Notes: generated by a model not told the origin, from the letters alone. A stretch of DNA of 64,000 nucleotides from an uncultured Bacteroidales bacterium (GCA_946621635.1 CAMOOR010000002.1:33944-97943), one strand, 5' to 3'; positions 5,311 to 20,031 are shown, counted from the stretch's first letter. Numbers and translations are program-made.

Positions 5311-5892
5311 ATGACAAAGAATCTCTACATAATAGCAGGTTGCAACGGAGCTGGCAAGACGACAGCTTCCTACACCATACTGCCCGAGATTCTTGACTGC
5401 CGCGAGTTCGTCAATGCCGATGAAATAGCCCGTGGCCTCTCGCCATTCAACCCCAACGGCATGGCCATAGAGGCTGGTAAACTAATGCTGAAACGCATAA
5501 AGGAGCTGCTCAGCCGCGACGAATCCTTTGCCATAGAGACCACCCTCGCCACACGCTCTTATGTCAATCTTGTGCATCAGGCACAGGCCAAGGGCTATCT
5601 CGTTACTCTGGTGTTCTTTTGGCTCAACAGCCCAGAGTTGGCGCTACGGCGTATTGCCGAGCGTGTACAGAACGGTGGCCACGATATTCCAGAGCCAACA
5701 GCACGACGTAGGTACATTGCAGGTATTGACAACCTCTTTAACCTATACATCCCGGAGGTTGACTATTGGATGATTTATGACAATAGCGAGTCGCCCTGTC
5801 TTCCCGTTGCACAAGGGAAATCAACGAAGACATCAACCCTCTACGATGAGGACAAACTGAATAAAATCAAGAGTTATGTCAGAAAAAGATGA
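5311..5892 (+). CDS. Zeta-toxin-like / AAA-family P-loop kinase (COG4185-type)
   Basis: Walker A motif GCNGAGKTT lies near the N-terminus. The ~190-aa size and overall sequence look like zeta-toxin-family ATPases. Confidence 0.65.
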   Translation: MTKNLYIIAGCNGAGKTTASYTILPEILDCREFVNADEIARGLSPFNPNGMAIEAGKLMLKRIKELLSRDESFAIETTLATRSYVNLVHQAQAKGYLVTLVFFWLNSPELALRRIAERVQNGGHDIPEPTARRRYIAGIDNLFNLYIPEVDYWMIYDNSESPCLPVAQGKSTKTSTLYDEDKLNKIKSYVRKR

Positions 5893-6430: not shown

Positions 6431-7795
6431 GTGATTATGAAAAGACCAACATTCAAGCCCCAAGCGCCCGACATAATCCTCACGGGTGACGGCCGCAGGA
6501 TTGCGAAGACCTGCCTGCTGCTTTTCTTCTTGTTTGCCAGCACTTTCTGCCATGCTCAGACGGCCGTCAATGTCCTTTTCGTGGGCAACAGCTACACCGA
6601 GGTCAACGACCTGCCGGGGATGGTGACGCAGATTGCCCGGTCGATGGGCGACGAGCTCGCCTGCCAGAGCAACACCCCCGGCGGCTGCACCTTCAGCCAG
6701 CATTGCAGCAACCACTCGATGGAGCTCATCCGACAGGGCGGCTGGCAATTCGTCGTGCTGCAGGAGCAGAGCCAGTATCCGTCGTTCCCGCAGCAGCAGG
6801 TCGAAAGCGAGGTGTTCCCCTACGCCCAGCGGCTGGTCGACTCCGTCTACCGCCATTCGCCTTGTGCCGAGCCGGTGTTCTACATGACGTGGGGGCGCAA
6901 GAACGGCGACCAGGGCAACGCCCCCTATTTCCCCGTGCTGGGCACCTACGAGGGCATGGACAGCATGCTCTGCGAGCGCTACACCTACATGGCCGAGGCC
7001 TACGACGCCTCGCTGTGCCCCGTGGGTCGCGTGTGGCGCTATCTGCGCACCCGGCGCCCCACTATCGAGCTCTACCAATCCGACGGCAGCCACCCCTCGG
7101 TAGCGGGCACCTATGCGGCCGCGTGCGCCTTCTACACACTCTTCTTCCATCGTAACCCGACTGGCATACCCTTCGAGCCCTCGCAGATGGCCCCCGACGT
7201 TGCGTCGGCCATCCGCCATGCCGTCGATTCGGTAGTGTATCAGCAACTTGACAGCTGGCGCCGTCCGCAACCCGTGGCCGCCTTCGAGAGCTACATCGAC
7301 GACACCGACCCCATGACGGTCGTCCTGGCCTCCACCTCCGCGCATGCCGACAGCCTTGTGTGGATAATCGACGATGGCGAAGCCCTCGGCACGACCGACA
7401 CCACACTGACGCACACCTTCGCCGACACCGGCAGCCAAACCATCACCCTAATCGCCTCGCGCCATTGCATGGCAGACACCACCACCGCGTCCGTCCACAT
7501 CGTTGGCGACACCACGCCTCCCCTACCCATAGGCATCGCAAGTGCTGTCAGCATCAACGATTTTGCCGTTTCCCCAAACCCTACCGACGGCATGGTCATC
7601 CTTACGATACCGCCCAACTGTGAAATGCAGAGAGTCGTAGCGACCGACATGGCTGGACGCCAGATAAAATCAGTCCCGGTCACGTCGACCGACATTAAGG
7701 TTGTTTTTTGGCTAGATAACTGTGCTTCAGGCGTCTACTTACTGCATGCCGTTGCCGCGACAGGAATCGCAACACGCAAGATAGTAGTGAGATAA
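6431..7795 (+). CDS. Secreted SGNH/DUF4886-like hydrolase with a T9SS C-terminal sorting domain
   Basis: A signal peptide is followed by VLFVGNSYT...DGSHPS (SGNH-like). The C-terminal ~75 aa (SPNPTDGMVILTIP...GVYLLHAV...RKIVVR) looks like a type A Por-secretion tail. A TAtcTTTG box lies at 6347-6354. Confidence 0.7.
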   Translation: MIMKRPTFKPQAPDIILTGDGRRIAKTCLLLFFLFASTFCHAQTAVNVLFVGNSYTEVNDLPGMVTQIARSMGDELACQSNTPGGCTFSQHCSNHSMELIRQGGWQFVVLQEQSQYPSFPQQQVESEVFPYAQRLVDSVYRHSPCAEPVFYMTWGRKNGDQGNAPYFPVLGTYEGMDSMLCERYTYMAEAYDASLCPVGRVWRYLRTRRPTIELYQSDGSHPSVAGTYAAACAFYTLFFHRNPTGIPFEPSQMAPDVASAIRHAVDSVVYQQLDSWRRPQPVAAFESYIDDTDPMTVVLASTSAHADSLVWIIDDGEALGTTDTTLTHTFADTGSQTITLIASRHCMADTTTASVHIVGDTTPPLPIGIASAVSINDFAVSPNPTDGMVILTIPPNCEMQRVVATDMAGRQIKSVPVTSTDIKVVFWLDNCASGVYLLHAVAATGIATRKIVVR

Positions 7796-7878
7796 TTTCC
7801 GTTTATTTGGCTCCATCGAAGATATTCCTGCGCGTAGGTGCTCAAAAACATTTACACATTAACACATTGGATGCGCGT

Positions 7879-7922
7879 CTACTCCTTTTACTCCCCTTTT
7901 GCTCCCCTTCGTACCCCCTTCT
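7879..7922 (-). repeat. 11-bp phased pyrimidine-rich array (reverse complement GGAGTAAAAGG-like)
   Basis: Four successive 11-mers read ctactcctttt / actcccctttt / gctccccttcg / tacccccttct. Confidence 0.5.
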
Positions 7923-7999
7923 GGGTAACTCTGCTGTTACTATATAATAACTCCGCTGTAAATCCGTTACACCCATAGTCATCATCAACAACACACACT

Positions 8000-8776
8000 A
8001 TGGCAAAGACCAACCCAACCCTCGGTCCTAATTCCGGCAAAATCGGCGACTTGGTATATTACACCCGCTTCGGCAAGGAGTTCGTACGCCGTAAGGCAGA
8101 GAACTTTAACGACTGCAAGTCGGATGCGCAGCTGCGCCAGCGCGCCCTCTTCAAGGCCACCCAGCAGACCGCAGCCCTATATGGTTCCATGTTACAACGC
8201 GGCCTCACCAAATATGCCCATAGCCATGGGCATACCGAAGCCAACGAGTTCTCGCGCCTCAACAAAGAATGCTTCACCTATGTCGGCGGCAAAGTCACCA
8301 TCGACTACCCAGCCCTGCAACTTGCGGTTGGCCCCCTGCCCTCAGTCGCATTCACTGCTTGCCACGCCGAAGGTCTCCACATCACGCTGACCTTCGACCC
8401 CAACCCCTCTGCCGACAAAGCCCGTCCCGACGATGTCGTCCACATCTATGCCGTCTCCCCGCAAGCCGAAGTCTGCATGCTTATGGCCAGCGTTGAACGC
8501 CAATCCGGACAGGCCGCCCTCGACCTCCCCGACCTGAGCGACGAGGTAACAACAGCATGCAAAAAAGAGCCAACGAATAAACCATTGAATAAGACTAACG
8601 CATTCATACACTCACGCACTAACGCAATCAACTATCACCTCTACGCCATCGTCGAAACAGCCAACACCGCCCCCATCCCCACCCTCTCTGCCGCCGAAAA
8701 GAAAGCCAACAAGCTCCACCGCAACATCAACCGCCGCGTATCCAACTCCATATTCATCGGCACCATTACCGCCTAA
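8000..8776 (+). CDS. DUF6266-like hypothetical protein (paralog of the minus-strand gene ending at 45082)
   Basis: The N-terminus MAKTNPTLGPNSGKIGDLVYYTRFGKEFVRRKAENFNDCKSDAQLRQRALFK aligns with MAKQRYGINDAYQGTVGTVIGYEWRGKWCLRARPRMVRNPRTEAQQVNREVFK of the second copy. The DUF6266 family name is from memory. Confidence 0.6.
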   Translation: MAKTNPTLGPNSGKIGDLVYYTRFGKEFVRRKAENFNDCKSDAQLRQRALFKATQQTAALYGSMLQRGLTKYAHSHGHTEANEFSRLNKECFTYVGGKVTIDYPALQLAVGPLPSVAFTACHAEGLHITLTFDPNPSADKARPDDVVHIYAVSPQAEVCMLMASVERQSGQAALDLPDLSDEVTTACKKEPTNKPLNKTNAFIHSRTNAINYHLYAIVETANTAPIPTLSAAEKKANKLHRNINRRVSNSIFIGTITA

Positions 8777-8848
8777 CCATAGCCCAGAAATACAACTGCC
8801 AATGAAAAAAATCAATAACAGATACAATAAAAAGAACACTTTTTCGTT

Positions 8849-8869
8849 TACCTTATGTAAAATAAGGTA
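8849..8869 (+). promoter_or_regulatory. 8-bp inverted repeat (TACCTTAT-N5-ATAAGGTA) ending 2 nt (8870-8871) before the dcm ATG at 8872
   Basis: Direct reading. It could be an operator or a translational hairpin. Confidence 0.35.
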
Positions 8870-8871
8870 AA

Positions 8872-10092
8872 ATGGCGAAACCAACATGTATAGATCTATT
8901 TGCGGGCTGCGGGGGACTCTCTCTCGGCTTGTACCTTGCCGGATGGCAAGGCCTTTTCGCCATTGAAAAAAACGCATTCCCATTTGAGACGCTAAAGCAC
9001 AACCTTGTTGACAATAAGAAACACTTCGATTGGCCGGACTGGCTGCCGCAAACCAACCACGACATAAACGAGGTGCTGGAGAAATATCAGGACCAACTGA
9101 AAGCCTTGCGGGGCAAAGTGGATTTGGTGGCTGGTGGGCCTCCGTGCCAAGGGTTTTCTATGGCCGGCAAACGTGTCGAAGACGATGTGCGCAACCAGCT
9201 TGTCTTCTCCTACATAAAGTTCATCGATTTTGTGCGTCCCCGCATGCTCCTCTTCGAGAATGTCAAAGGTTTTACCTATGCATTTGACAAAAAGAATGAC
9301 AGCGGCGCTGAACCCTACTCGCATAAGGTGATTAGAGGATTGCAACAATTGGGATACAATGTCAAACCCCACGTTTTTGACTTCTCCAATTATGGGGTTC
9401 CTCAACGGCGCAAACGTTTCATATTAGTTGGAGTCCAAGATGGGTTAGGTAGCCCTGACAACTTTGAGCAACTGTTGTTGACCCATCGTGATGCCTTCCT
9501 GAAAAGCAAAGGCTTAAAGCCTAATGTCACACTGAAGGAAGCCATATCCGACCTGCTCCGCAGCAACGGTGAACTTCCTACTTCGGACCGCAAAGGCTTC
9601 AATTCCGGAGTATATGGCAATGCCCAGTTGAGCAACTACGGAAAAGCGATGCGCGGAGATTATCCAAAGACACACACCATTCCCGACAGCCACAGTTTTG
9701 CCCATCATACACCCGAAAAGATTGCATTATTCCAACGCCTATTGGCCGAATACCAACCCCGAGGCAAACGCATTGATGGCAAAGCTCGCGAGGCTTGGGG
9801 CATCAAGCAAAGAGGAATAACAGTGTTAGACCCCGATGCCGTTTCACCAACTATAACTGGACAGCCTGACGACTACTTGCATTATTCAGAGCCCCGCATC
9901 ATGACCGTCCGTGAGTGTGCTCGCATTCAATCGTTCCCTGATTGGTACGAGATAAGAGCAAAATACACCACTGGCGGAGATATGCGCAAGTTTGAGGTAC
10001 CACGCTACTCTCAGGTCGGCAATGCCATACCTCCTCTCTTTGCCGAGCAGGCTGGAATTGTTTTAAAGGAGATGTTGCAGAATGAAAGATAA
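8872..10092 (+). CDS. dcm: DNA (cytosine-5)-methyltransferase
   Basis: All canonical m5C-MTase motifs are present: I DLFAGCGGLSLG, IV GGPPCQGFS, VI LLFENVKGF, VIII QRRKRFILVG, IX TVRECARIQSFPDWY, X QVGNAIPPLFA. Confidence 0.93.
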   Translation: MAKPTCIDLFAGCGGLSLGLYLAGWQGLFAIEKNAFPFETLKHNLVDNKKHFDWPDWLPQTNHDINEVLEKYQDQLKALRGKVDLVAGGPPCQGFSMAGKRVEDDVRNQLVFSYIKFIDFVRPRMLLFENVKGFTYAFDKKNDSGAEPYSHKVIRGLQQLGYNVKPHVFDFSNYGVPQRRKRFILVGVQDGLGSPDNFEQLLLTHRDAFLKSKGLKPNVTLKEAISDLLRSNGELPTSDRKGFNSGVYGNAQLSNYGKAMRGDYPKTHTIPDSHSFAHHTPEKIALFQRLLAEYQPRGKRIDGKAREAWGIKQRGITVLDPDAVSPTITGQPDDYLHYSEPRIMTVRECARIQSFPDWYEIRAKYTTGGDMRKFEVPRYSQVGNAIPPLFAEQAGIVLKEMLQNER

Positions 10093-12448
10093 TCTACAAT
10101 TCCGTGTTAGTGCAGAACTGAAAAACATTCTGGGTCGGGATTTGATTACAAGTCCCGACATCGCCATATTGGAGTTGGTCAAGAACTCATACGATGCCCA
10201 TGCTACCAAAGTGGAAATCACTTTTGACGACGACTATATTGCCATAGCTGATAATGGGAAGGGCATGTCGAAAGACGACTTAATCAACAAATGGTTGTTT
10301 GTCGCCTATTCTGCCAAGAGCGATGGAACGGAAGACAAATCCTATCGTAGTAAGTTCAAACGCCATTACGCAGGCGCCAAAGGCATTGGCCGAATGTCCT
10401 GCGATCGATTGGCTCGTTACCTCACCCTTACCACACGAAGTGTGGAAGAAAACAAGACGGAAATTCTCAATGTTGATTGGAATGTTTTCGAGATTGACAA
10501 GCAGAAGGAGTTTGACACAGTCAATATCCCCCATGAAACAAAAGACGACCTCACAAAGTTTCCGTTGGATTCCCCCACTGGAACCATTCTAGAGTTTACA
10601 GGCCTACATCTTCCATGGAGCCGTGAGGACATTAAACGACTTCGAAAGTCTCTGGAAAAGATGATTAATCCATTCTCAGGAACGGATGATGATTTCCAAA
10701 TTGAGATCATTGCTCCAGCAATGAAAGAGGATGATGAGAATACAGAGTCTCCACATGAAGTGGTTAATGGTATTGTCGAAAACACCATTGCCGATGTTCT
10801 AAAGCTAAAAACCACCCAAATAGAAAGTCAGATAAAAAACGGCATGATTTATACTTCTTTAACCGACCGTGGTGTTAAGATGTATGAAATCGAAGAACAT
10901 AACAGTGTTTATTCAAAATTAGCGTCTGCTTCTATTAGTTTATTCTTTCTAAATCGAGCAGCCAAATATAATTTTACTGCAAGAATGGGTATCGAACCGG
11001 TTAACTATGGTAATGTTTTTTTGTTCAGAAACGGTTTTAGAATTTTACCATTCGGTGATTATAACGATGATAGCTGGGGATTGAACCAAAGACAACAACA
11101 AGGTTATAATCGTCGTTTAGGTACCCGTGATTTGTTTGGACGAGTGGATGTTGAAACAGACGATGTGGATTTGATTAAGGAAGTTTCAAGTCGCGATGGA
11201 GGGTTAATCAAGACTGATGCTTCACAACAATTGATGAACTATTTTACAGAGACTCATAAACGGTTGGAACGCTATGTGGTTGGCGTTTTATGGGGAGAAG
11301 GGTTCATAAGAAAAGAGTATTTTGTCAATCAAAGTGCAGCTGAGAGGGCCCGAGAAAAATTAAAAGAAACGGACAAAGACTTGGAATCTGCTGATCACTT
11401 ATATTCAAACATTGGTAGTAAGATTGATTTCATGCAACTTATCCGTTCGCTCGTAAATGACAATTCCATCGATGTAAAGTATTACAATGAGGAATTGGCA
11501 GACATTGTTTCCAATCCTTCAGAGACGGAAGTGATTCAAGCGCAGATGTTTGATGATGTCCGAAAGATGGCCGAAAAAACCAACGATGCTGCTTTATTGG
11601 ACAAGATAGCCGACTTCGAGCGTCACATGGATGAACTACGCTGCCAGAAAGAGGATGCTGAACGCAAAGAAAAAGAAGAAAGAAAAGCGAAAGAACTAGC
11701 GGAACGAAAAGCAAAAGAGGAGGAAGAGAAACGCAAGAAAGTCGAAATAGAGCTTAAACAGCGAACAAAACAAAACCTATTTCTGCAATCTGTCGGGAGT
11801 CTTGACACCGACCGTATATTAAAATACCACCACGATATACGCATTCATGCAGCAACTATACATAACACGATTGGCCAGATTTTAAGAAAAGCGAATCAGG
11901 GTTCATTGTCAACAGAGGATACTATCAAGATGATTGAACGTATCTCCCGCGCTAATGACAAGATAACCTCTATCGCCCAATTTGCCACCAAAGCGAACTA
12001 CAGCATCAATGCAGACACAATCAATGCAGACATTGTAAATTACATCGATGAATATATCAACAATGTACTGCCGGAGTTCTATGGAGATATTCAATTGCAT
12101 TGTAGTAATAAATCCTGCACAAAGGTCATTGCTTTCTCTCCATTGGAAGCAAGTATATTCATAGACAATCTTGTATCAAATACAGTTAAGGCAAATGCCA
12201 AGCATTTTGACGTGGTTTTCGAAAAGGACAATGATGCTGTATGTATGACCATCACGGATGATGGCGACGGCCTATCGCCAGATATTGCCGACCCGAATAG
12301 CATTCTGGAGAAAGGTTACACAACAACCAATGGTTCCGGATTAGGCCTCTATAATGTGGCCTCATTTGTCAAGACGGTTATGCATGGCTCTGTTTCTGTT
12401 GAAAACAAGCTGGGCAAGCAGGGATTTAAACTAAAAATAAAATTCTAA
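10082..12448 (+). CDS. Dual-GHKL protein: N-terminal MORC/MutL-like HATPase_c_3 module, coiled coil, then histidine-kinase core (H-box plus HATPase_c)
   Basis: The N-terminal Bergerat boxes are ELVKNSYDA, DNGKGM and GAKGIGR. A Lys/Glu coiled coil (ERKEKEERKAKELAERKAKEEEEKRKK) follows, then an H-box-like YHHDIRIHAATIHN. A second ATPase has NLVSNTVKA, DDGDGL and GSGLGL. The start codon overlaps the dcm stop by 11 nt. Confidence 0.75.
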   Translation: MKDNLQFRVSAELKNILGRDLITSPDIAILELVKNSYDAHATKVEITFDDDYIAIADNGKGMSKDDLINKWLFVAYSAKSDGTEDKSYRSKFKRHYAGAKGIGRMSCDRLARYLTLTTRSVEENKTEILNVDWNVFEIDKQKEFDTVNIPHETKDDLTKFPLDSPTGTILEFTGLHLPWSREDIKRLRKSLEKMINPFSGTDDDFQIEIIAPAMKEDDENTESPHEVVNGIVENTIADVLKLKTTQIESQIKNGMIYTSLTDRGVKMYEIEEHNSVYSKLASASISLFFLNRAAKYNFTARMGIEPVNYGNVFLFRNGFRILPFGDYNDDSWGLNQRQQQGYNRRLGTRDLFGRVDVETDDVDLIKEVSSRDGGLIKTDASQQLMNYFTETHKRLERYVVGVLWGEGFIRKEYFVNQSAAERAREKLKETDKDLESADHLYSNIGSKIDFMQLIRSLVNDNSIDVKYYNEELADIVSNPSETEVIQAQMFDDVRKMAEKTNDAALLDKIADFERHMDELRCQKEDAERKEKEERKAKELAERKAKEEEEKRKKVEIELKQRTKQNLFLQSVGSLDTDRILKYHHDIRIHAATIHNTIGQILRKANQGSLSTEDTIKMIERISRANDKITSIAQFATKANYSINADTINADIVNYIDEYINNVLPEFYGDIQLHCSNKSCTKVIAFSPLEASIFIDNLVSNTVKANAKHFDVVFEKDNDAVCMTITDDGDGLSPDIADPNSILEKGYTTTNGSGLGLYNVASFVKTVMHGSVSVENKLGKQGFKLKIKF

Positions 12449-12453
12449 CGATT

Positions 12454-13344
12454 ATGAATTTGAAATACCGAATACTGTGGATTGAGAACGAGGAAGATTG
12501 GGTAGAGAGTATTGAAGACCAAATTCAAGAATATCTTGAAGATTTGGGGCTCGTCTATGAGAGAAAACTAATTGCAAAAGAAGAACAAGGTATCAGCTAT
12601 AATGATTATGACTTAATCCTTATGGACTTAAATCTCGCCGACCAACCCAATGGAGCGGAACTTATATCCAAAATACGAGATTTGGGTGTGTATACAGATG
12701 TCGTATTCTATTCAGCGAGTGGTATAGACGAATTAAGAGCGAAAGGAAGGGAGAAAGAGCTTGAGGGTGTATTCTATAGTGGTCGCACTCCAGATACAAC
12801 ATTTGTGAATAGAGTAAAGGCTGTCATTGACGCCACGCTAAAGAAAGTCCAAGACTTGAACAATCTACGCGGACTTGTCATGGCTGAAGTCAGTGAACTT
12901 GATGCAATGATGGATAAAATCATCCCATTGTATTTCAACACGGAGGAAAGAATGGCGTTGTTCCACAAGCATATTACCGCCAACAGAGAGAAAACCCTTC
13001 AGAAGTCATTAAACTGCATCAACAAATGTCAGCTTTCATGGCGAGGCATTGGCATTCAAGAGATAGTCCTTCAGTTAGACTCGTCACAAAAAGCCCGTGC
13101 AATAAAAATCATTATTGACCAAGAGAAACCTGACTTTTACAAAGGCGAGAACTTCTATAAAGAATACGATGCCGCTGTTATCACACCTCGGAATGAACTA
13201 GCGCATTGCAAGAGTGAACTTCGTGATGGCCAAGAGATTCTTTTGACCAGAAAAGGAGACAAGTGCTTCAATGAGGCGTTCTTTAAAGAGATTCGCAAGA
13301 ACATCTTGAAGTATTCAAGTATTTTTAATGAACTTTTGCAATAG
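12454..13344 (+). CDS. Response regulator: REC receiver domain fused to a helical C-terminal domain with a HEPN-type RNxxAH motif
   Basis: The REC part has ILWIENEED and LILMDLN (putative phospho-acceptor D58, codon 12625-12627). The C-terminal part has TPRNELAH (R246..H251, nt 13189-13206), which fits the Rx4-6H HEPN signature. The gene starts 5 nt after the kinase stop codon. Confidence 0.7.
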   Translation: MNLKYRILWIENEEDWVESIEDQIQEYLEDLGLVYERKLIAKEEQGISYNDYDLILMDLNLADQPNGAELISKIRDLGVYTDVVFYSASGIDELRAKGREKELEGVFYSGRTPDTTFVNRVKAVIDATLKKVQDLNNLRGLVMAEVSELDAMMDKIIPLYFNTEERMALFHKHITANREKTLQKSLNCINKCQLSWRGIGIQEIVLQLDSSQKARAIKIIIDQEKPDFYKGENFYKEYDAAVITPRNELAHCKSELRDGQEILLTRKGDKCFNEAFFKEIRKNILKYSSIFNELLQ

Positions 13345-13449: not shown

Positions 13450-14226
13450 ATGGTGAACAAACAAAAAAAATGGACCAGAGAAGAATTGATATTGGCACTG
13501 AGTGTGTACTTTCAGCTTCCTTTTGGACGACTAAACCACACCACGCCAGAGGTAAAAGAGCTGGCAAAAATATTAGGGCGTTCGGATAATTCTGCTGCTT
13601 TGCGTTTGTCTAATTTTGCTGCTTGCGACCCATACATTATCAATTCTGGACGTACGGGTATGCGTGCAGGGATTCCTGTGTGCAAACCCATTTGGGATGA
13701 ATTTGCCGATGACAAAGAACGACTGTTTAACGAGGCACAACATATCAAAGCTACACTACTCCAAAAGACAGTCGAGGAGACATTGAACATTTCCAAACAA
13801 GATCTTGAAGGGAAAGAGAGGTCTGTTGTCATCAAGCAACACGTTAACCAATCCGTGTTTCGTACGATGATACTCTTTAACTATGAAAATTGTTGTGCTA
13901 TTACTGGCATCAACATCCCAGAACTACTTGTTGCTGGTCATATTATACCCTGGGCAAACAGCACTCCTCAGCAAAAGTTAAATCCGGAAAATGGAATATG
14001 TTTATCCCCACTTTACGACAAGGCTTTTGATAAAGGCTTCATTACCATATCTCCGGATGATTACACTGTCCGTATTTCTTCCGCATTGCGTGAATACGAG
14101 AAAAAGGAATATTTCAACAAGCACTTTGGCAGTATCAATGGTCAAAGAATAAATATGCCTATAGAACACAAACCAAACCGAGACTATTTAGCTTACCATC
14201 GCGATAATATTTTCTTGGGGGATTAA
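13450..14226 (+). CDS. HNH endonuclease (HNH_2 / COG3440-type putative restriction enzyme)
   Basis: The C-terminal half has CCAITGINIPELLVAGHIIPW...NPENGICLSPLYDKAFDKGFITI, typical of the HNH_2 family. The N-terminal WTREELILALSVY region is common in stand-alone restriction-type HNH proteins. Confidence 0.85.
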   Translation: MVNKQKKWTREELILALSVYFQLPFGRLNHTTPEVKELAKILGRSDNSAALRLSNFAACDPYIINSGRTGMRAGIPVCKPIWDEFADDKERLFNEAQHIKATLLQKTVEETLNISKQDLEGKERSVVIKQHVNQSVFRTMILFNYENCCAITGINIPELLVAGHIIPWANSTPQQKLNPENGICLSPLYDKAFDKGFITISPDDYTVRISSALREYEKKEYFNKHFGSINGQRINMPIEHKPNRDYLAYHRDNIFLGD

Positions 14227-14280: not shown

Positions 14281-15360
14281 ATGGACATTCACTCATTGTA
14301 TGAAAGAATATGTAATATGCTTCCGATTACTTGGTTGGATGGGGAAGTATTGTCATTTCAAAAGAAATTGTCAAGTCAATTAGACCAATATTGGGGTTTA
14401 ATTAAAGAAATTGATATAAAAGATAGACCTGCCGAATGGGATGATATCAAAATTACTATCAAATCTTTGAACAAGAAAATAGTAGAAATTATCAACGACG
14501 AATATAAAGGATATCATTCGACTGCATTTATGAGCCTTCGAACATTACTTGAAGACAATCGTCCCAATACAAATTTGCATATTAAAGATAGTCTTATTTT
14601 TTACGATTTACCTGAAATGACAAAGACATATCGAATTCGAATGTTTGACTTTGATAAGCGTAAAGGTGTCACATTCAAAGATATGTTCCATATTCCATTT
14701 GACAAGCGAGGAATCGTAAAAACGGAGCGCTTTAGTATGCCAGGATATCCATGTCTTTATCTTGGTAAAAGTGCATACGGATGTTGGGAGGAAATGGGTC
14801 AACCTTCCGTGGATAATTGCATGGTATCTTGCCTTGAAAATCAGGAAACGGTCAAATTAATTGACCTTAGAATACCCACTGAAGCAGCTTTTAGGGATAG
14901 GCTTAAGGATTATTTGATTATCCTGCCTATAATCATTTCGTGTATGGTGCAAGTTAAGAACCGTACAGATGTTTTCAAGGCAGAATACCTTATTCCCCAA
15001 CTTATCATAGAATGGCTTATTTATCACAACAAGTCTGAACACGACAAAATACTAGGTGTTACTTATACATCTTCTGCCAAGAATAATTCTTTCGGTTTTC
15101 CTCCGTATGTTTTTGATAACTATGCGATACCTGCTGTAATGGGCAAAAAAGACTCAAAGTATAGTTCAACACTGTGTCGAATCTTCAGAATTACAAATCC
15201 CACATGCGATGAATTTGAATCAATCGTTAGAGGTCCATACGCCAGAATTGCATATAGCGATCCTGATCCCCAAGAGGCAGCATACAAAAATTCATTATTT
15301 GGTGCATTGGAGAGTGCATTAAGTGAACGAGAAAGATTTCCATTTAATCATATTATATAG
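14281..15360 (+). CDS. RES-domain protein (NAD+-targeting toxin family) with a ~100-aa N-terminal extension
   Basis: The R-E-S signature is present: TERFSMPGYPCLYLGKSAYGCWEEMG (R and E), then ILGVTYTSSAKNN (S). Confidence 0.7.
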   Translation: MDIHSLYERICNMLPITWLDGEVLSFQKKLSSQLDQYWGLIKEIDIKDRPAEWDDIKITIKSLNKKIVEIINDEYKGYHSTAFMSLRTLLEDNRPNTNLHIKDSLIFYDLPEMTKTYRIRMFDFDKRKGVTFKDMFHIPFDKRGIVKTERFSMPGYPCLYLGKSAYGCWEEMGQPSVDNCMVSCLENQETVKLIDLRIPTEAAFRDRLKDYLIILPIIISCMVQVKNRTDVFKAEYLIPQLIIEWLIYHNKSEHDKILGVTYTSSAKNNSFGFPPYVFDNYAIPAVMGKKDSKYSSTLCRIFRITNPTCDEFESIVRGPYARIAYSDPDPQEAAYKNSLFGALESALSERERFPFNHII

Positions 15361-15538: not shown

Positions 15539-15895
15539 ATGAATTTAGAAAACTATCGCGAATATTGCCTGTCGATGGGCGAGGATGCTGGCTCCATTGT
15601 GCTACCGCCAAAGGTATTGAATGCCCGTTATGTGATGTTGCACAATGGCACAAACGGTACCTTGTTCAAACTAAAAGGTGCAGGGCCTCGTTTCATATCG
15701 AAAGAAACCCTGCAAAAGAAAGGCTTCGAAACCCTCGGTCATGACTACTACCTAGTTAATACTTTTGATACCGCACAATCAAAAGACTACAACAACCTTT
15801 CCTCTCATGGCCGGGGGAAACAGACTACCACTCCATGGTTTGCCACCTGGGAAGAATTGATGAATAATGATAATCGCTATGGAAAACAATCATAA
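15539..15895 (+). CDS. Hypothetical protein; the first ~16 aa resemble an MmcQ/YjbR-family N-terminus
   Basis: The 118-aa ORF begins MNLENYREYCLSMGED, like the start of YjbR/MmcQ. I do not recognise the rest. Confidence 0.4.
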   Translation: MNLENYREYCLSMGEDAGSIVLPPKVLNARYVMLHNGTNGTLFKLKGAGPRFISKETLQKKGFETLGHDYYLVNTFDTAQSKDYNNLSSHGRGKQTTTPWFATWEELMNNDNRYGKQS

Positions 15896-16112: not shown

Positions 16113-17126
16113 ATGACTAACGAAATTCAATTCATCTTATATAATCTTCCTGATAATGAAGGAAGTGTGCATGGTGTAGTGCAGGATGAGACTATATGGC
16201 TAACGCAAAAGGCGATGGCGCAGTTGTTTGGAGTGAACGTTCCTGCCATCAGCAAACATCTGAGAAACATATTCGACTCAGAAGAGTTGAACGAAAATGT
16301 GGTTGTTTCCAAAATGGAAATAACCACTGAACACGGAGCTATTGAAGGGAAAACACAGACCCACGAGGCCATGTTTTACAATCTTGACGCCATCATATCT
16401 GTCGGCTATCGCGTCAACTCTGCCAAAGCCACGCACTTCCGACAGTGGGCGACAAAAGTATTGAATGAGTATATCCGCAAGGGGTTTGTCTTGGACGACA
16501 ATAGGCTGAAACAAGGAGAGGCGGTGTTCGGCAAGGACTATTTCCGCGAGTTGTTGGAACGTATCCGATCCATCCGCGCCAGCGAACGACGCATCTGGCA
16601 GCAAATCACTGACATCTTCGCCGAGTGCAGTATAGACTACGACAAATCGTCGCCTGTAACTCAGGATTTCTACGCCATGGTGCAGAACAAATTCCACTAC
16701 GCTATCACCGGCAAGACGGCGGCGGAAATCATCTACACCTCCGCCGATCACACCAAGGAACACATGGGTCTGACGACTTGGAAGAACTCACCCGACGGAC
16801 GCATCCTAAAATCGGATGTCACCATAGCCAAGAACTATCTCGACGAACAACAGATACGCCGTTTGGAGCGTGCCGTAACGGGTTTCTTCGATTACATTGA
16901 GGACCTGGTGGAAACTGAGAACACTTTCACCATGGAGCAGTTCGCCGCCAGCGTCAACGAATTCCTGAATTTCCGTCGTTTCAAAATACTCCCCAACAAA
17001 GGCTCTATTTCTAAAACCATGGCCGAAGAAAAAGCTTCCGCCGAGTACGATATTTTCAACCGTACACAAAAGATAGACTCCGACTTTGACAAAGCTGTGC
17101 GGCAACAACTCGGAGACAAAAAGTAG
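16113..17126 (+). CDS. RhuM-family virulence/defence-island protein
   Basis: 337 aa with WLTQKAMAQLFGVNVPAISKHLRNIF...YNLDAIISVGYRVNSAKATHFRQWATKVL..., characteristic of RhuM. Confidence 0.85.
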   Translation: MTNEIQFILYNLPDNEGSVHGVVQDETIWLTQKAMAQLFGVNVPAISKHLRNIFDSEELNENVVVSKMEITTEHGAIEGKTQTHEAMFYNLDAIISVGYRVNSAKATHFRQWATKVLNEYIRKGFVLDDNRLKQGEAVFGKDYFRELLERIRSIRASERRIWQQITDIFAECSIDYDKSSPVTQDFYAMVQNKFHYAITGKTAAEIIYTSADHTKEHMGLTTWKNSPDGRILKSDVTIAKNYLDEQQIRRLERAVTGFFDYIEDLVETENTFTMEQFAASVNEFLNFRRFKILPNKGSISKTMAEEKASAEYDIFNRTQKIDSDFDKAVRQQLGDKK

Positions 17127-17130
17127 TTCT

Positions 17131-18035
17131 ATGACCGACACCATGACACCCTAGCAGCGGCACCGCTGCATGTCGCACATACGCAGCAAGGCCACGAAGC
17201 CGGAACTGCTGGTGCGGCGGTGGCTGTGGAGGCATGGGTATAGGTATCGGTTGAATGTGAGGAGTGTGCCGGGGAAGCCGGACATCGTGTTGAGGACTTA
17301 CCGCACGGCAATATTCGTCAACGGGTGCTTCTGGCACGGACATATCGTGAGAATGCGCGAATGTGGGAATGCGTTAATGCGTGAGTCAGAGGAACTGCAA
17401 AGCGGAAATAATCTACAAGATTTACAAGATTTCGCAAGTGCAGAGCGCGAGCAGGAGAATAAAGATATACCGAGCTCCCCCTGCTGCAAGATTCCGCAGA
17501 CCAACCGCAGCTTCTGGCTGGAGAAAATACGCCGCAACCAAGAGCACGACCAGCGCAACTACGCCCTGCTGCAGGACAACGGCTGGCAGGTCATCGTCGT
17601 ATGGGAGTGCCAACTGAAGTCCGACAAGATAGAGCGCACCATGCGCGAGGTGGAGCTGCTGCTGAACACCAATCTGCTATCCCGGTATAAACACACCCCC
17701 ATCCCTTACCCCACCGAGGAGGACGACCAATTGCCTATGGCCGCCGAGGATTAAAGATTCCACAGGTACTCTTTCAGGGGGACTTTGCCGGAGGGGGTGA
17801 GGTGGATGCCTTCGGAGGTCAGGAGGGAGGCTTGGGCGGGGTAGTGCGGGGCAAGGCGGCCGGAGGCGTTGACGACGCGGTGACAGGGGAGATCGGCATC
17901 GGGAGCCGTTCGCATGATGCGGCCCACCAGGCGGGAATGATTGGGCCAGCCACACAAGGCGGCGATACGGCCATAGGTAAGCACCCGCCCACGCGGTATC
18001 TGGCGGACGATGTCGTAGACCTCGGCTCGAAGGGT
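17131..18035. repeat. Segmental duplication, copy 1 (vsr plus convergent MGMT-like gene)
   Basis: It aligns by eye with 19117-19986 over most of its length, starting exactly at the vsr ATG. The aligned stretches I compared carry scattered substitutions. Confidence 0.85.
17170..17754 (+). CDS. vsr: Very-short-patch repair endonuclease, copy 1 (5'-truncated by an in-frame TAG, with a 43-codon in-frame insertion; possibly decaying)
   Basis: Vsr signature: SHIRSKATKPE...PGKPDIVL...AIFVNGCFWHGH...KIPQTNRSFWLEKIRRNQEHDQRN...GWQVIVVWECQL. The paralog's start (ATG 17131) is followed here by TAG at 17152-17154, where copy 2 has GAG. Confidence 0.7.
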   Translation: MSHIRSKATKPELLVRRWLWRHGYRYRLNVRSVPGKPDIVLRTYRTAIFVNGCFWHGHIVRMRECGNALMRESEELQSGNNLQDLQDFASAEREQENKDIPSSPCCKIPQTNRSFWLEKIRRNQEHDQRNYALLQDNGWQVIVVWECQLKSDKIERTMREVELLLNTNLLSRYKHTPIPYPTEEDDQLPMAAED

Positions 18036-18068
18036 GGCCTCGCTCGGCTGTGCTGCAACGTTTATCAT
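17751..18068 (-). CDS. MGMT-family protein (O6-alkylguanine transferase DNA-binding domain, PCHRV retained), copy 1
   Basis: EVYDIVRQIPRGRVLTYGRIA...DLPCHRVVNASG. The start is ambiguous (18068 or 18116). Its stop overlaps the vsr stop in a TTAA tetranucleotide. Confidence 0.75.
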   Translation of the reverse strand: MINVAAQPSEATLRAEVYDIVRQIPRGRVLTYGRIAALCGWPNHSRLVGRIMRTAPDADLPCHRVVNASGRLAPHYPAQASLLTSEGIHLTPSGKVPLKEYLWNL

Positions 18069-18180
18069 GAACGAATAACGCAATGCGTTGCCAATTATTG
18101 TTTCTCCTTTTATCATATTCCCCTGCTCGCGCTACGCGCTTGCGAGATCTCGTAGATCTTGTGGATTAACAGAAAAAATA

Positions 18181-19116: not shown

Positions 19117-19662
19117 ATGACCGACACCATGACATCCGAGCAGCGGCACCGCTGCATGTCGCACATACGCAGCAAGGCCACGAAGCCGGAACTGCTGGTG
19201 CGGCAGTGGCTATGGGGGCATGGGTATCGATACAGATTGAACGTAAAGAGTGTGCCGGGCAAGCCGGACATCGTGCTGCGGCCCTACCGCACGGCGATAT
19301 TCGTCAACGGGTGCTTCTGGCACGGACACGGTGTGCGGCCGGAGGCCGCACAAATTGAAAATTCAAAATTGAAAATTGAAAGCTCCCCCTGCTGCAAGAT
19401 TCCACAGACCAACCGCAGCTTCTGGCTGGAGAAGATACGCCGCAACCAGGAGCGCGACCAGCGCAACTACGCCCTGCTGCAGGACAACGGCTGGCAGGTC
19501 ATCGTCGTCTGGGAGTGCCAACTGAAGCCCGACAAGATAGAACACACCATGCGTGAGGTGGAGCTGATGTTAAATAGCAACATGCTTTCGATTTACAAGC
19601 ATCATCCAGTCCCATACTCCACAGAGGAAGAGATGCCTATGCCGAAGGCGGCGGAAAACTGA
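19117..19662 (+). CDS. vsr: Very-short-patch repair endonuclease, copy 2 (full N-terminus, with a 17-codon in-frame insertion)
   Basis: MTDTMTSEQRHRCMSHIRSKATKPE...CFWHGH-[insert]-SSPCCKIPQTNRSFWLEKIRRNQERD...VVWECQL. Confidence 0.85.
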   Translation: MTDTMTSEQRHRCMSHIRSKATKPELLVRQWLWGHGYRYRLNVKSVPGKPDIVLRPYRTAIFVNGCFWHGHGVRPEAAQIENSKLKIESSPCCKIPQTNRSFWLEKIRRNQERDQRNYALLQDNGWQVIVVWECQLKPDKIEHTMREVELMLNSNMLSIYKHHPVPYSTEEEMPMPKAAEN

Positions 19663-19986
19663 TGGAGTTTAGCTCCAACAAGGCAATAAATCTTGCAATT
19701 ATTCTATCACCCACAAGTACTCTTTCAGCGGGACATTGCCGGAGGGGGTGAGGTGGATGCCTTCGGCGGACAGGAGGGAGGCTTGGGCGGGGTAGTGCGG
19801 GGCGAGGCGGCCGGAGGCGTTGACGACGCGGTGGCAGGGAAGATCGGCATCGGGAGCCCCACGCATGATGCGGCCCACTAGGCGCGCATGATTGGGCCAG
19901 CCGCATAAGGCGGCGATACGGCCATAGGTGAGTACCCGCCCGCGCGGTATCTGTCGGACGATGTCGTAGACCTCGGCACGAAGGGT
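19117..19986. repeat. Segmental duplication, copy 2 (vsr plus convergent MGMT-like gene)
   Basis: See copy 1. Confidence 0.85.
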
Positions 19987-20031
19987 CTCTTCTGTGGGTT
20001 GCACTCTCATACCTTCAGGAACGCTATCCAC
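19699..20031 (-). CDS. MGMT-family protein (PCHRV retained), copy 2
   Basis: It is near-identical to copy 1 from TLRAEVYDIVRQIPRGRVLTYGRIA onward. The start is 20031 or 20010. Confidence 0.75.
   Translation of the reverse strand: MDSVPEGMRVQPTEETLRAEVYDIVRQIPRGRVLTYGRIAALCGWPNHARLVGRIMRGAPDADLPCHRVVNASGRLAPHYPAQASLLSAEGIHLTPSGNVPLKEYLWVIE

Follow-up and report, generated by a model that had tools for sequence, protein, structure and literature searches.

A methyltransferase-linked two-component module with a HEPN-like response regulator in an uncultured Bacteroidales bacterium, predicted to act in defence or addiction

What would a response regulator do if it carries no recognisable DNA-binding output domain and is encoded, together with its kinase, directly behind a DNA methyltransferase? 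This question is raised by a three-gene locus at positions 8872 to 13344 of a stretch of 64,000 nucleotides (nt) from an uncultured Bacteroidales bacterium (GCA_946621635.1 CAMOOR010000002.1:33944-97943), the whole of which is referred to here as the window. The locus encodes a C5 cytosine DNA methyltransferase (Dcm), a soluble histidine kinase with two GHKL-type ATPase folds, and a response regulator that ends in a HEPN-like domain. An earlier interpretation made from the DNA alone (the sequence-only reading) had presented these genes as a candidate new defence module; the claim of newness needs correction, since the architecture was published in 2021 (PMC8011034) and a relative, Ambrosia, was validated in 2025, while the accompanying functional guess of a two-component abortive-infection system is reasonable. 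Our analysis describes a mobile three-gene, methylase-linked two-component module whose role is most likely either defence against foreign DNA or self-stabilising addiction, an assignment for which we regard the case as evenly balanced.

Three genes form one conserved unit

The genes of the module are arranged in the window as follows.

8872..10092, + strand: C5 cytosine DNA methyltransferase (Dcm), module gene 1; 406 amino acids (aa), Pfam DNA_methylase
10082..12448, + strand: soluble dual-GHKL sensor histidine kinase, module gene 2; 788 aa, Pfam HATPase_c_3 and HATPase_c
12454..13344, + strand: response regulator, module gene 3; 296 aa, Response_reg match below the gathering score

The window coordinates and sequence confirm the compact layout noted previously, with the dcm stop overlapping the kinase ATG by 11 nt and the regulator ATG following the kinase stop after a gap of 5 nt. 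The linkage was also borne out by a survey of co-occurrence. In a scan of one genome per species, all 16 loci encoding a full-length relative of the regulator demonstrated Dcm, kinase and regulator in the same order and with tight spacing, and among the 47 metagenome and IMG/VR loci whose sequence extends 3.9 kb or more beyond the regulator on the upstream side, the kinase was found upstream in 46 and Dcm in 45. The exceptions were a kinase-regulator pair with no Dcm directly upstream, on a viral-classed contig (L041, IMGVR_UViG_2918814736_000002, 7612-10930), and a partial regulator match accompanied by neither kinase nor Dcm. The trio was present in Bacteroidota, Akkermansia, Kiritimatiellota, Fibrobacter, Streptococcus suis and Methanosarcina; the Streptococcus suis locus reads Dcm-kinase-regulator-NOV_C, and in an Akkermansia locus (L122) the trio is followed by a convergent Vsr gene and then by AbiH. 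Junctions between the genes consist of 4-11 nt overlaps or gaps of a few nt, both in the window and in distant relatives, and on short contigs of very divergent members the upstream gene overlaps the regulator start by the same 4-11 nt; in the single locus of this kind with a Pfam record, that gene bears HATPase_c. Gene order and spacing indicate that Dcm, soluble kinase and regulator are one unit, co-transcribed, translationally coupled and inherited together across phyla.

The genes downstream of this unit are variable. HNH_2 accompanies the trio in loci with an identical regulator and different flanks, and an adjacent HNH gene was found in 4/17 genome and 5/47 metagenome loci (9/64, ~14%), which are nevertheless spread over several divergent clades. 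Within three genes downstream of the regulator, the 16 genome loci had seven other C5-methylases, three HNH_2, three McrB-like AAA_5 and two NOV_C genes, as well as single restriction nucleases, and at some loci plain housekeeping genes (2-oxoacid dehydrogenase, EF-G, UvrA). In the metagenome set of 47, the place up to 500 nt downstream is taken by an HNH gene at 5 loci, by a second Dcm at 9, by Vsr at 3 and by something different at the other 30. There was no other conserved effector gene, the downstream genes being mostly housekeeping or unrelated restriction-modification (R-M) genes. This variability implies that the core consists of three genes, with HNH_2 or NOV_C as a recurrent optional fourth. 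An explanation in which HNH_2 is the cognate restriction enzyme of Dcm in a plain type II system, and kinase and regulator are bystanders, was ruled out because the trio is mostly kept without HNH and HNH is variable.

The module also appears to be an arrival in its present surroundings. The guanine plus cytosine (GC) content drops from ~0.58 to 0.35-0.42 across 10-16 kb of the window, indicating a block foreign to its surroundings. An identical regulator protein occurs with two or more different sets of flanks, the gene order from Dcm to RhuM being preserved, which indicates that this block is mobile. Three points are newly recognised: conservation centres on the trio and not on HNH; the family extends to Firmicutes and archaea; and the regulator of this large clade has at its C-terminus a HEPN-like domain whose catalytic-type motif is invariant.

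The regulator joins a divergent receiver to a HEPN-like domain

Two domains are distinguished in the regulator.

12454..12834, + strand: divergent receiver (REC) with putative phospho-acceptor D58 at nt 12625-12627; Response_reg at residues 9-102
12835..13341, + strand: HEPN-like helical domain, predicted effector, residues 128-296, with R246-N-E-L-A-H251 at nt 13189-13206; assigned by motif and model

The receiver had been described as normal with acceptor D58. The acceptor stands, being present in the window and invariant in a set of 110 diverse relatives that are 27-51% identical to the window's regulator; the receiver as a whole is instead divergent, with Response_reg E-values of 2e-6 to 6e-6 and a score of 26.8 bits, just below the 30.2-bit gathering score. 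PF00072 (Response_reg) was matched by 91/110 relatives, and a Foldseek search of the full-length regulator model against PDB returned many receiver domains at E ~1e-5 and only receivers.

The output domain belongs to a large family: 680 clusters at 50% identity were recovered by an exhaustive profile search, of which 305 reached E <= 1e-10. In full-length matches the domain comes after another of ~130 aa and nearly always occupies residues ~130-300 of proteins of ~300 aa. The motif TPRNELAH, highlighted earlier as a HEPN-type catalytic signature, lies at residues 244-251. Across the 110 regulators no more than five columns are invariant (D58, Y86, R139, R246, H251), two of them within this motif. 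S87 and N247 are each at least 90% conserved in the same set, N247 is invariant in a 32-member set, and the pattern RN.[LMFI][AG]H was present in 121/123 full-length cluster representatives. AlphaFold models were obtained for the full-length regulator (predicted local distance difference test, pLDDT, 83) and for residues 128-296 (pLDDT 88.4, predicted template modelling score, pTM, 0.82). In these, the output domain runs from two long helices through an insert with short helices and a further helix to the motif helix, a beta-hairpin and a long last helix, with R246-N-E-L-A-H251 forming the C-terminal end of a helix. A survey of the HEPN superfamily describes an Rx4-6H motif at the end of helix 3, a polar residue after the R, and frequent inserts between helices 2 and 3 (PMC3710099). 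The predicted secondary structure of the output domain fits this layout when compared by description.

Profile similarity points in the same direction for some relatives. HEPN_RiboL-PSP was the only recurrent non-REC Pfam family, matched by 4/110 regulators, among them P0326, in which residues 116-287 align with positions 6-181/191 of the model (1e-5, 26.0 bits). Single weak matches, one each, were observed among the relatives to MAE_28990, Swt1, Abi_2 and HEPN_RES_NTD1, and the regulators of L009 and L011 demonstrated weak HEPN_MAE_28990 matches that span the motif in a consistent register. The members that give a HEPN signal are a minority of the family. There were no matches to helix-turn-helix (HTH), winged-helix or other DNA-binding Pfam families in any of the 110 relatives, and the earlier statement that a DNA-binding output domain is lacking holds for every profile searched. 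A profile of the output domain returned only spurious S100 and other helical matches (E > 0.04) against PDB sequences, and tblastn of the regulator against phage and plasmid collections gave no match. Overall, we describe the output domain with moderate confidence as HEPN-like, as distinct from a demonstrated HEPN. No receiver-HEPN regulator was found described in literature text searches.

The kinase combines a class-I core with a second ATPase

The regions of the kinase are as follows.

10151..10528, + strand: N-terminal MutL/MORC/Hsp90-type Bergerat ATPase, predicted sensor head; residues 24-149, HATPase_c_3 7e-25
10529..11596, + strand: conserved middle region; residues 150-505, dense invariant motifs
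11597..11806, + strand: charged K/E-rich linker; about residues 506-575, read from sequence
11807..12445, + strand: DHp domain (H-box H584, nt 11831-11833) and catalytic ATP-binding (CA) domain (N, G1 and G2 boxes); profile alignment, HATPase_c

The two Bergerat ATPase folds proposed earlier were recovered, the C-terminal one as Pfam HATPase_c at residues 694-781 (7.7e-21), and each quoted box lies where it had been placed (ELVKNSYDA at 31, DNGKGM at 57, GAKGIGR at 98, YHHDIRIH at 582, NLVSNTVKA at 696, DDGDGL at 726, GSGLGL at 751). There is no membrane-like or hydrophobic segment in the protein, the maximum Kyte-Doolittle value over 19 residues being 1.09. The likeness of the N-terminal head to MORC/MutL proteins was upheld: besides HATPase_c_3, it matches MutL and MzaB in NCBIfam, and a kinase profile against PDB sequences matched the head to HtpG, MutL and Hsp90. 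In PADLOC, the kinase matched REase_II PDLC03419 (2.7e-13), MzaB and TmtA, all through ATPase heads only, and the NCBIfam BbrUII/HgiDII family (NF050001) matched its N-terminus only, at 3.5e-26 and 91.9 bits against a cut-off of 550.

At the other end of the protein, a profile built from 15 orthologues aligns across DHp and CA with ZraS, HK853 and CpxA (2.7e-16 to 1e-13) and places H584-D585 on the phospho-accepting H260-E261 of HK853; the match required the profile, as phmmer with the DHp and CA region alone returned nothing from PDB at 1e-4. The H-box suggested previously is supported further by conservation, since H584, together with N700, G753 and G755, is invariant in 17 kinases that span six phyla, with representatives of Bacteroidota, Verrucomicrobiota, Kiritimatiellota, Fibrobacterota and Methanosarcina, and the acidic residue after it (D585) is invariant or conserved across the same orthologues. 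Directly before the H-box, residues ~506-580 are 56% D/E/K/R, and this charged K/E-rich linker is probably a coiled coil, as had been proposed. Among the 17 orthologues there are 99 invariant residues, and mean identity falls from 66% in the head to 57% in the next ~270 residues, 50% in DHp and 47% in CA. The middle region (residues 150-505) has no Pfam or PDB sequence match and contains the invariant motifs N229 G230; R320 P323 G325 D330 R337; G353 R371 G374; and E396; it is possibly the S5/transducer-like part of paraMORC ATPases. On these alignments the kinase is a bona fide class-I DHp and CA kinase to which a MutL/MORC/Hsp90-type ATPase has been added at the N-terminus.

The first gene of the module is a clear Dcm (Pfam DNA_methylase 2.5e-54; TIGR00675 dcm 5.7e-43). 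Across phyla its identity in the genome loci is 51-84%, above the conservation of kinase and regulator, and in L009 and L014 Dcm is 78-80% identical to the window's with kinase and regulator only 38-40% identical. The target-recognition region is 49-76% identical in most loci. Immediately upstream of dcm, a perfect 7-bp inverted repeat, ACCTTAT-N5-ATAAGGT, occupies window positions 8850-8868 and ends 3 nt before the ATG; a similar ACCT...AGGT element is present at the same place in L002, and the other loci are without it. Bacteroidetes-type TAnnTTTG-like motifs were spotted by eye upstream of dcm in several related loci, and a scan for sigma-70 promoters and terminators gave hits at chance level only.

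Comparison with known systems

The closest published counterpart is that of Bellieny-Rabelo, Pretorius and Moleleki (Genome Biol Evol 2021), who described a C5-methyltransferase upstream of a soluble kinase composed of HATPase_c_3, a DHp-like HEF_HK domain and HATPase_c in 644 regions of 628 strains, with an adjacent regulator-like protein, "Response_reg_2", that has no other known domain (PMC8011034). R-M genes were reported to be significantly enriched in these regions, and the nucleases found most often nearby were Vsr and HNH_2. Bacteroides, Prevotella and Akkermansia are among the taxa covered, and the authors proposed a regulatory link to R-M and descent from paraMORC ATPases (PMC8011034). 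The gene architecture is essentially the same as that of the window trio. PF19191 (HEF_HK) and PF19192 (Response_reg_2) gave no match to the window proteins, the 110 relatives or 4 plasmid relatives at E <= 10, with the presence of the two models in the library copy unconfirmed; the window proteins and their relatives score instead on PF00072 and PF02518. This would be explained by a sister clade with more canonical REC and DHp domains, or by models that are narrow or absent from the library copy. In contrast to the published regulators, for which no C-terminal domain was assigned, the window's C-terminus is HEPN-like with an invariant RNxxxH.

Ambrosia consists of an XRE regulator, an N6-adenine methyltransferase, a HATPase kinase, a receiver-winged-HTH (REC-wHTH) regulator and a type IV HNH nuclease, and in Pseudomonas aeruginosa protection against phage requires each of the five genes as well as the receiver aspartate, being lost in the receiver mutant D60A (bioRxiv 10.1101/2025.09.30.679545). 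The window shares with it a methyltransferase, a HATPase histidine kinase of a type common to both, a receiver protein and, through HNH_2, an HNH gene. It differs in having a C5-methyltransferase, no adjacent XRE gene, a REC fused to a 170-aa HEPN-like domain, and HNH in only ~14% of loci, where Ambrosia has an obligatory HNH and a short REC-wHTH regulator; AbrB and AbrC were compared by description only.

Sister systems occur on plasmids, with kinases homologous to the window's at 23-30% identity over the N-terminal half. An Ambrosia-like set on a Deinococcus plasmid combines an N6-methylase, a short regulator (~215-228 aa) and HNH with a kinase that is 26% identical over residues 5-390 (E 6e-23), and Hymenobacter and Burkholderia plasmids combine an N6-methylase and a short regulator with a metallo-beta-lactamase (MBL)-fold hydrolase. 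The short regulator of Deinococcus has no similarity to the HEPN-like domain, nor have the short regulators of the HNH- and MBL-linked systems generally any similarity to the window's output domain. Campylobacter jejuni conjugative plasmids carry dcm and a 340-aa regulator of which only the receiver part resembles the window's. A separate nuclease or hydrolase thus accompanies short regulators and none is conserved beside the long one, as would be expected if residues 128-296 were the effector, and by this analogy the sister systems support a modular, effector-swapping reading.

The homologous dual-GHKL kinase is carried by 43 Campylobacter plasmids, and on one conjugative Campylobacter jejuni plasmid (L031, CP132124.1, 1386-5851) it is accompanied by the 340-aa regulator, whose C-terminal domain is unrelated and without family assignment, and by a convergent dcm, which makes this a further variant in a pathogen. 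A Klebsiella plasmid match (H29/L033, NZ_AP022116.1, 5992-6183) was set aside as uninformative, being a 63-aa remnant beside a Tn7-like element; it is 54% identical to the kinase N-terminus and lies immediately after tnsE, and it suggests that such kinases travel as Tn7 cargo.

GHKL ATPases of the paraMORC type have been described with Dcm, Vsr and HNH in R-M operons (PMC2292703), direct paraMORC GHKL-HEPN (Ymh) fusions occur in R-M neighbourhoods (PMC3710099), and the GHKL-Shedu nuclease VcSduA is a validated defence system (PMC12137116). The window kinase resembles these proteins in its N-terminal HATPase_c_3-type ATPase, in its association with Dcm, Vsr and HNH, and in the prospect of an effector nuclease under GHKL control. 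In those systems the nuclease is fused to the ATPase, whereas in the window DHp and CA take the place of the nuclease and the predicted nuclease is on a separate receiver protein, an arrangement that would interpose a phosphorelay between the two. The type II enzymes BbrUII/HgiDII likewise share the homologous N-terminal ~210 residues (GHKL ATPase) and a 5-methylcytosine (m5C) methylase partner; the match covers model positions 3-209/659, and the nuclease and specificity part is replaced in the window by the coiled-coil linker, DHp and CA. Detocs, which comprises the kinase DtcA, the buffer receiver DtcB and the receiver-PNP effector DtcC, also uses two-component phosphotransfer in defence and likewise has a fusion of receiver and effector as its output. 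The earlier judgement that the window module is distinct from Detocs was sustained, as PADLOC gave no match for the regulator and no Dtc match for the kinase, and the module has a single receiver gene; it lacks a buffer receiver, and has a GHKL sensor head, a HEPN-like in place of a nucleosidase effector, and an integral methylase.

Proposed mechanism and alternative explanations

A mechanism that would account for these features is R-M-like immunity or addiction with a phosphorelay doing the work of "restriction": a paraMORC-type clamp would read Dcm methylation, His-to-Asp transfer would follow, and a receiver-fused HEPN RNase would act as the effector. We put this mechanism forward tentatively. 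Dcm would mark the host's own DNA, and the GHKL head and middle domain would bind DNA, with ATP-driven dimerisation reporting incoming or unmethylated DNA; ATP-dependent dimerisation is typical of GHKL ATPases, and the head and middle domain are the best-conserved parts of the kinase, paralleling the well-conserved methylase. Dimerisation would be relayed through the charged linker to DHp, so that H584 would be autophosphorylated and the phosphoryl group passed on to D58. As a rule HEPN RNases are dimers, and dimerisation of the phosphorylated receivers would join two HEPN-like domains into an active RNase, the resulting RNA cleavage arresting cells that are infected or have lost the module. 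The sign of control could be reversed, with phosphorylation holding the effector off. In a minority of loci, the window included, an extra nuclease gene (HNH_2 or NOV_C) would be attached to this core.

Several observations weigh against this account. The best HEPN match of any relative is below the Pfam gathering score (26.0 vs 28.4 bits), the family consensus sequences and the 10 most divergent members gave no HEPN Pfam match, and the window's own output domain matched no Pfam family even at E <= 10. HEPN hits had been anticipated from a Foldseek search of regulator residues ~130-296; none was obtained below E = 0.05 in PDB or BFVD, the model of residues 128-296 giving best E-values of 0.87 (PDB) and 0.059 (BFVD) and no HEPN entry, so that this model-based route neither confirms HEPN nor points to another fold. 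The proposed HEPN identity is accordingly upheld in part, by the motif, its placement at a helix end and the near-threshold HEPN_RiboL-PSP similarity, and is not upheld by the Pfam and Foldseek searches with the window's own domain. The kinases of L012 and L013 (Verrucomicrobia, Kiritimatiellota) retain H584, the N box and the G2 box and lack a DxGxG G1 box, ISN-RTF replacing DDGDGL, which would be strange if the phosphorelay were obligatory. The sensing of DNA by the GHKL head, toxicity of the effector, the sign of phosphorylation and the RNA target are steps that we infer. For the Ambrosia regulator the proposed role is that of a transcription factor, acting through infection-induced transcription, and methylation gave no protection to phage (bioRxiv 10.1101/2025.09.30.679545). 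Finally, HNH_2 in the window lies 105 nt downstream of the regulator with no terminator-like site between them.

The last two points also belong to the main alternative, Ambrosia-like transcriptional control, under which the output domain would bind DNA, with the RNxLAH helix and beta-hairpin serving as recognition helix and wing, and phosphorylation would induce killer genes of the HNH_2 type. Ambrosia (methyltransferase, HATPase kinase, REC-wHTH and HNH) is a validated system whose genes are induced on infection, HNH_2 or NOV_C recurs beside the regulator in several divergent clades, and the AlphaFold model contains a helix-loop-helix-hairpin element; the weight that we allow this explanation comes mainly from the presence of HNH_2 in the window and the silence of Foldseek as to HEPN. 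We nevertheless consider it unlikely. An adjacent HNH was found in few of the 64 loci and many trios abut housekeeping genes, 0/110 members match HTH or winged-helix Pfam families whereas HEPN families recur, and Foldseek returned no winged-helix match either. The strict invariance of R, N and H at ~30% identity is like that of a catalytic site, where a recognition helix should track its operators, and no similarity to this domain is seen in the short regulators that accompany HNH or MBL-fold genes on plasmids.

The same parts could instead serve addiction, with the kinase monitoring methylation of the chromosome, so that loss of the module would dilute methylation, trigger the toxic regulator and thereby stabilise the island. 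The mobility and foreign GC content of the module fit such a role, as do the strict linkage of the methylase to kinase and regulator, the established selfish behaviour of R-M systems (discussed in PMC8011034), and the finding that AbrA methylation gave phage no protection from Ambrosia. Addiction is inseparable from defence by sequence and the two roles are not exclusive, but the defence-island context and the validated anti-phage relative favour defence, and addiction as the role in its own right seems to us quite improbable. An ordinary two-component system tuning Dcm/Vsr epigenetics or repair, in which the output domain would be a protein-interaction module and there would be no toxic effector, draws on the frequent proximity of Vsr, on earlier speculation about a signalling role in R-M control (PMC8011034), and on a fold whose enzymatic assignment is unconfirmed. 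It is poorly compatible with the invariant RNxxxH and HEPN profile similarity, with the patchy, horizontally transferred distribution from Methanosarcina to Streptococcus, with sister systems that have variable effector genes, and with the defence-island context, and we regard it as very improbable.

Should the phosphorelay-gated RNase prove correct, HEPN would be a new class of response-regulator output and a MutL/MORC-type ATPase a new class of histidine-kinase sensor; this would be the first response regulator with an RNase output and the first kinase sensing via a MutL/MORC ATPase on DNA. If the output is an RNase, two-component modules beside R-M genes would not only be transcriptional switches, as proposed for Ambrosia, and could be the killing arm itself. 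The family is large, with the 680 clusters mentioned above, and is common in gut and rumen Bacteroidales and Akkermansia, while its presence in the culturable Streptococcus suis makes the predictions testable. Current annotation lists the proteins as "ATP-binding protein" and "response regulator/hypothetical", and PADLOC makes no system call.

Neighbouring genes and island context

Genes of interest around the module in the window are as follows.

5311-5892, + strand: Zeta-toxin/AAA_33 kinase-like gene, 193 aa, followed by an overlapping open reading frame (ORF) of 60 aa called on the source contig
13450..14226, + strand: HNH_2 endonuclease, recurrent optional fourth gene; Pfam HNH_2 2.5e-12, PADLOC HNH PDLC04132 6e-83
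14281-15360, + strand: 359-aa ORF; only a weak RES-domain match (E 0.021, residues 146-204)
15539-15895, + strand: 118-aa ORF, inside the low-GC block between regulator and Vsr
16113-17126, + strand: RhuM-family gene, inside the low-GC block; Pfam 1.6e-103, PADLOC candidate PDC-S05 1.9e-155
17170..17754, + strand: Vsr very-short-patch repair endonuclease; Pfam Vsr 1.5e-25, TIGR00632 7e-36
21373-24309, + strand: MmeI-family type IIL R-M enzyme, 978 aa; MmeI_N, hel, Mtase, TRD and C domains (Pfam record, same contig)

The presence of the MmeI-family enzyme marks the region as a defence island, and the context genes of the window comprise the Zeta-toxin kinase, RhuM, two Vsr genes and this enzyme. 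The expected R-M or defence neighbourhood was seen elsewhere too, with AAA_21/RloB, AAA_13, McrBC-like (AAA_5) and EVE-HNH genes, AbiH, and Fic with a ResIII helicase near the trio in other loci, some of which abut housekeeping genes. The module is thus a mobile one that resides in defence and R-M islands, usually among R-M and abortive-infection (Abi) genes. Vsr is the usual companion of Dcm, and it was found near the trio in 7/16 genome loci, being directly adjacent in L006, in the Akkermansia locus L122 and in several metagenome loci.

Further features of the island were noted in passing. A + strand Vsr gene with a convergent DNA_binding_1 (Ogt/Ada C-terminal-like) gene after it is present in two copies (17170-18116 and 19117-20031) with an SBP_bac_3 gene between them, and this looks like a duplicated pair of Vsr and methyl-repair genes beside the island. 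The 359-aa ORF follows HNH_2 in both flanking contexts of the identical-regulator loci and may be a further cargo gene of the island, and distant relatives of the 118-aa ORF are found downstream of the trio in L006, L052 and L108. Upstream of the module, the Zeta-toxin kinase-like gene and the 60-aa ORF may be a toxin-antitoxin pair. A second C5-methylase, only 25-33% identical, is encoded no more than 3 kb past the regulator in 19/37 metagenome loci; related loci with this feature include L001, L004, L005, L045, L052, L053 and L058-L063. McrB-like AAA_5 genes often come next, and Vsr is a further 6-8 kb away. The interval separating regulator from Vsr resembles a hot spot at which other m5C-related systems insert.

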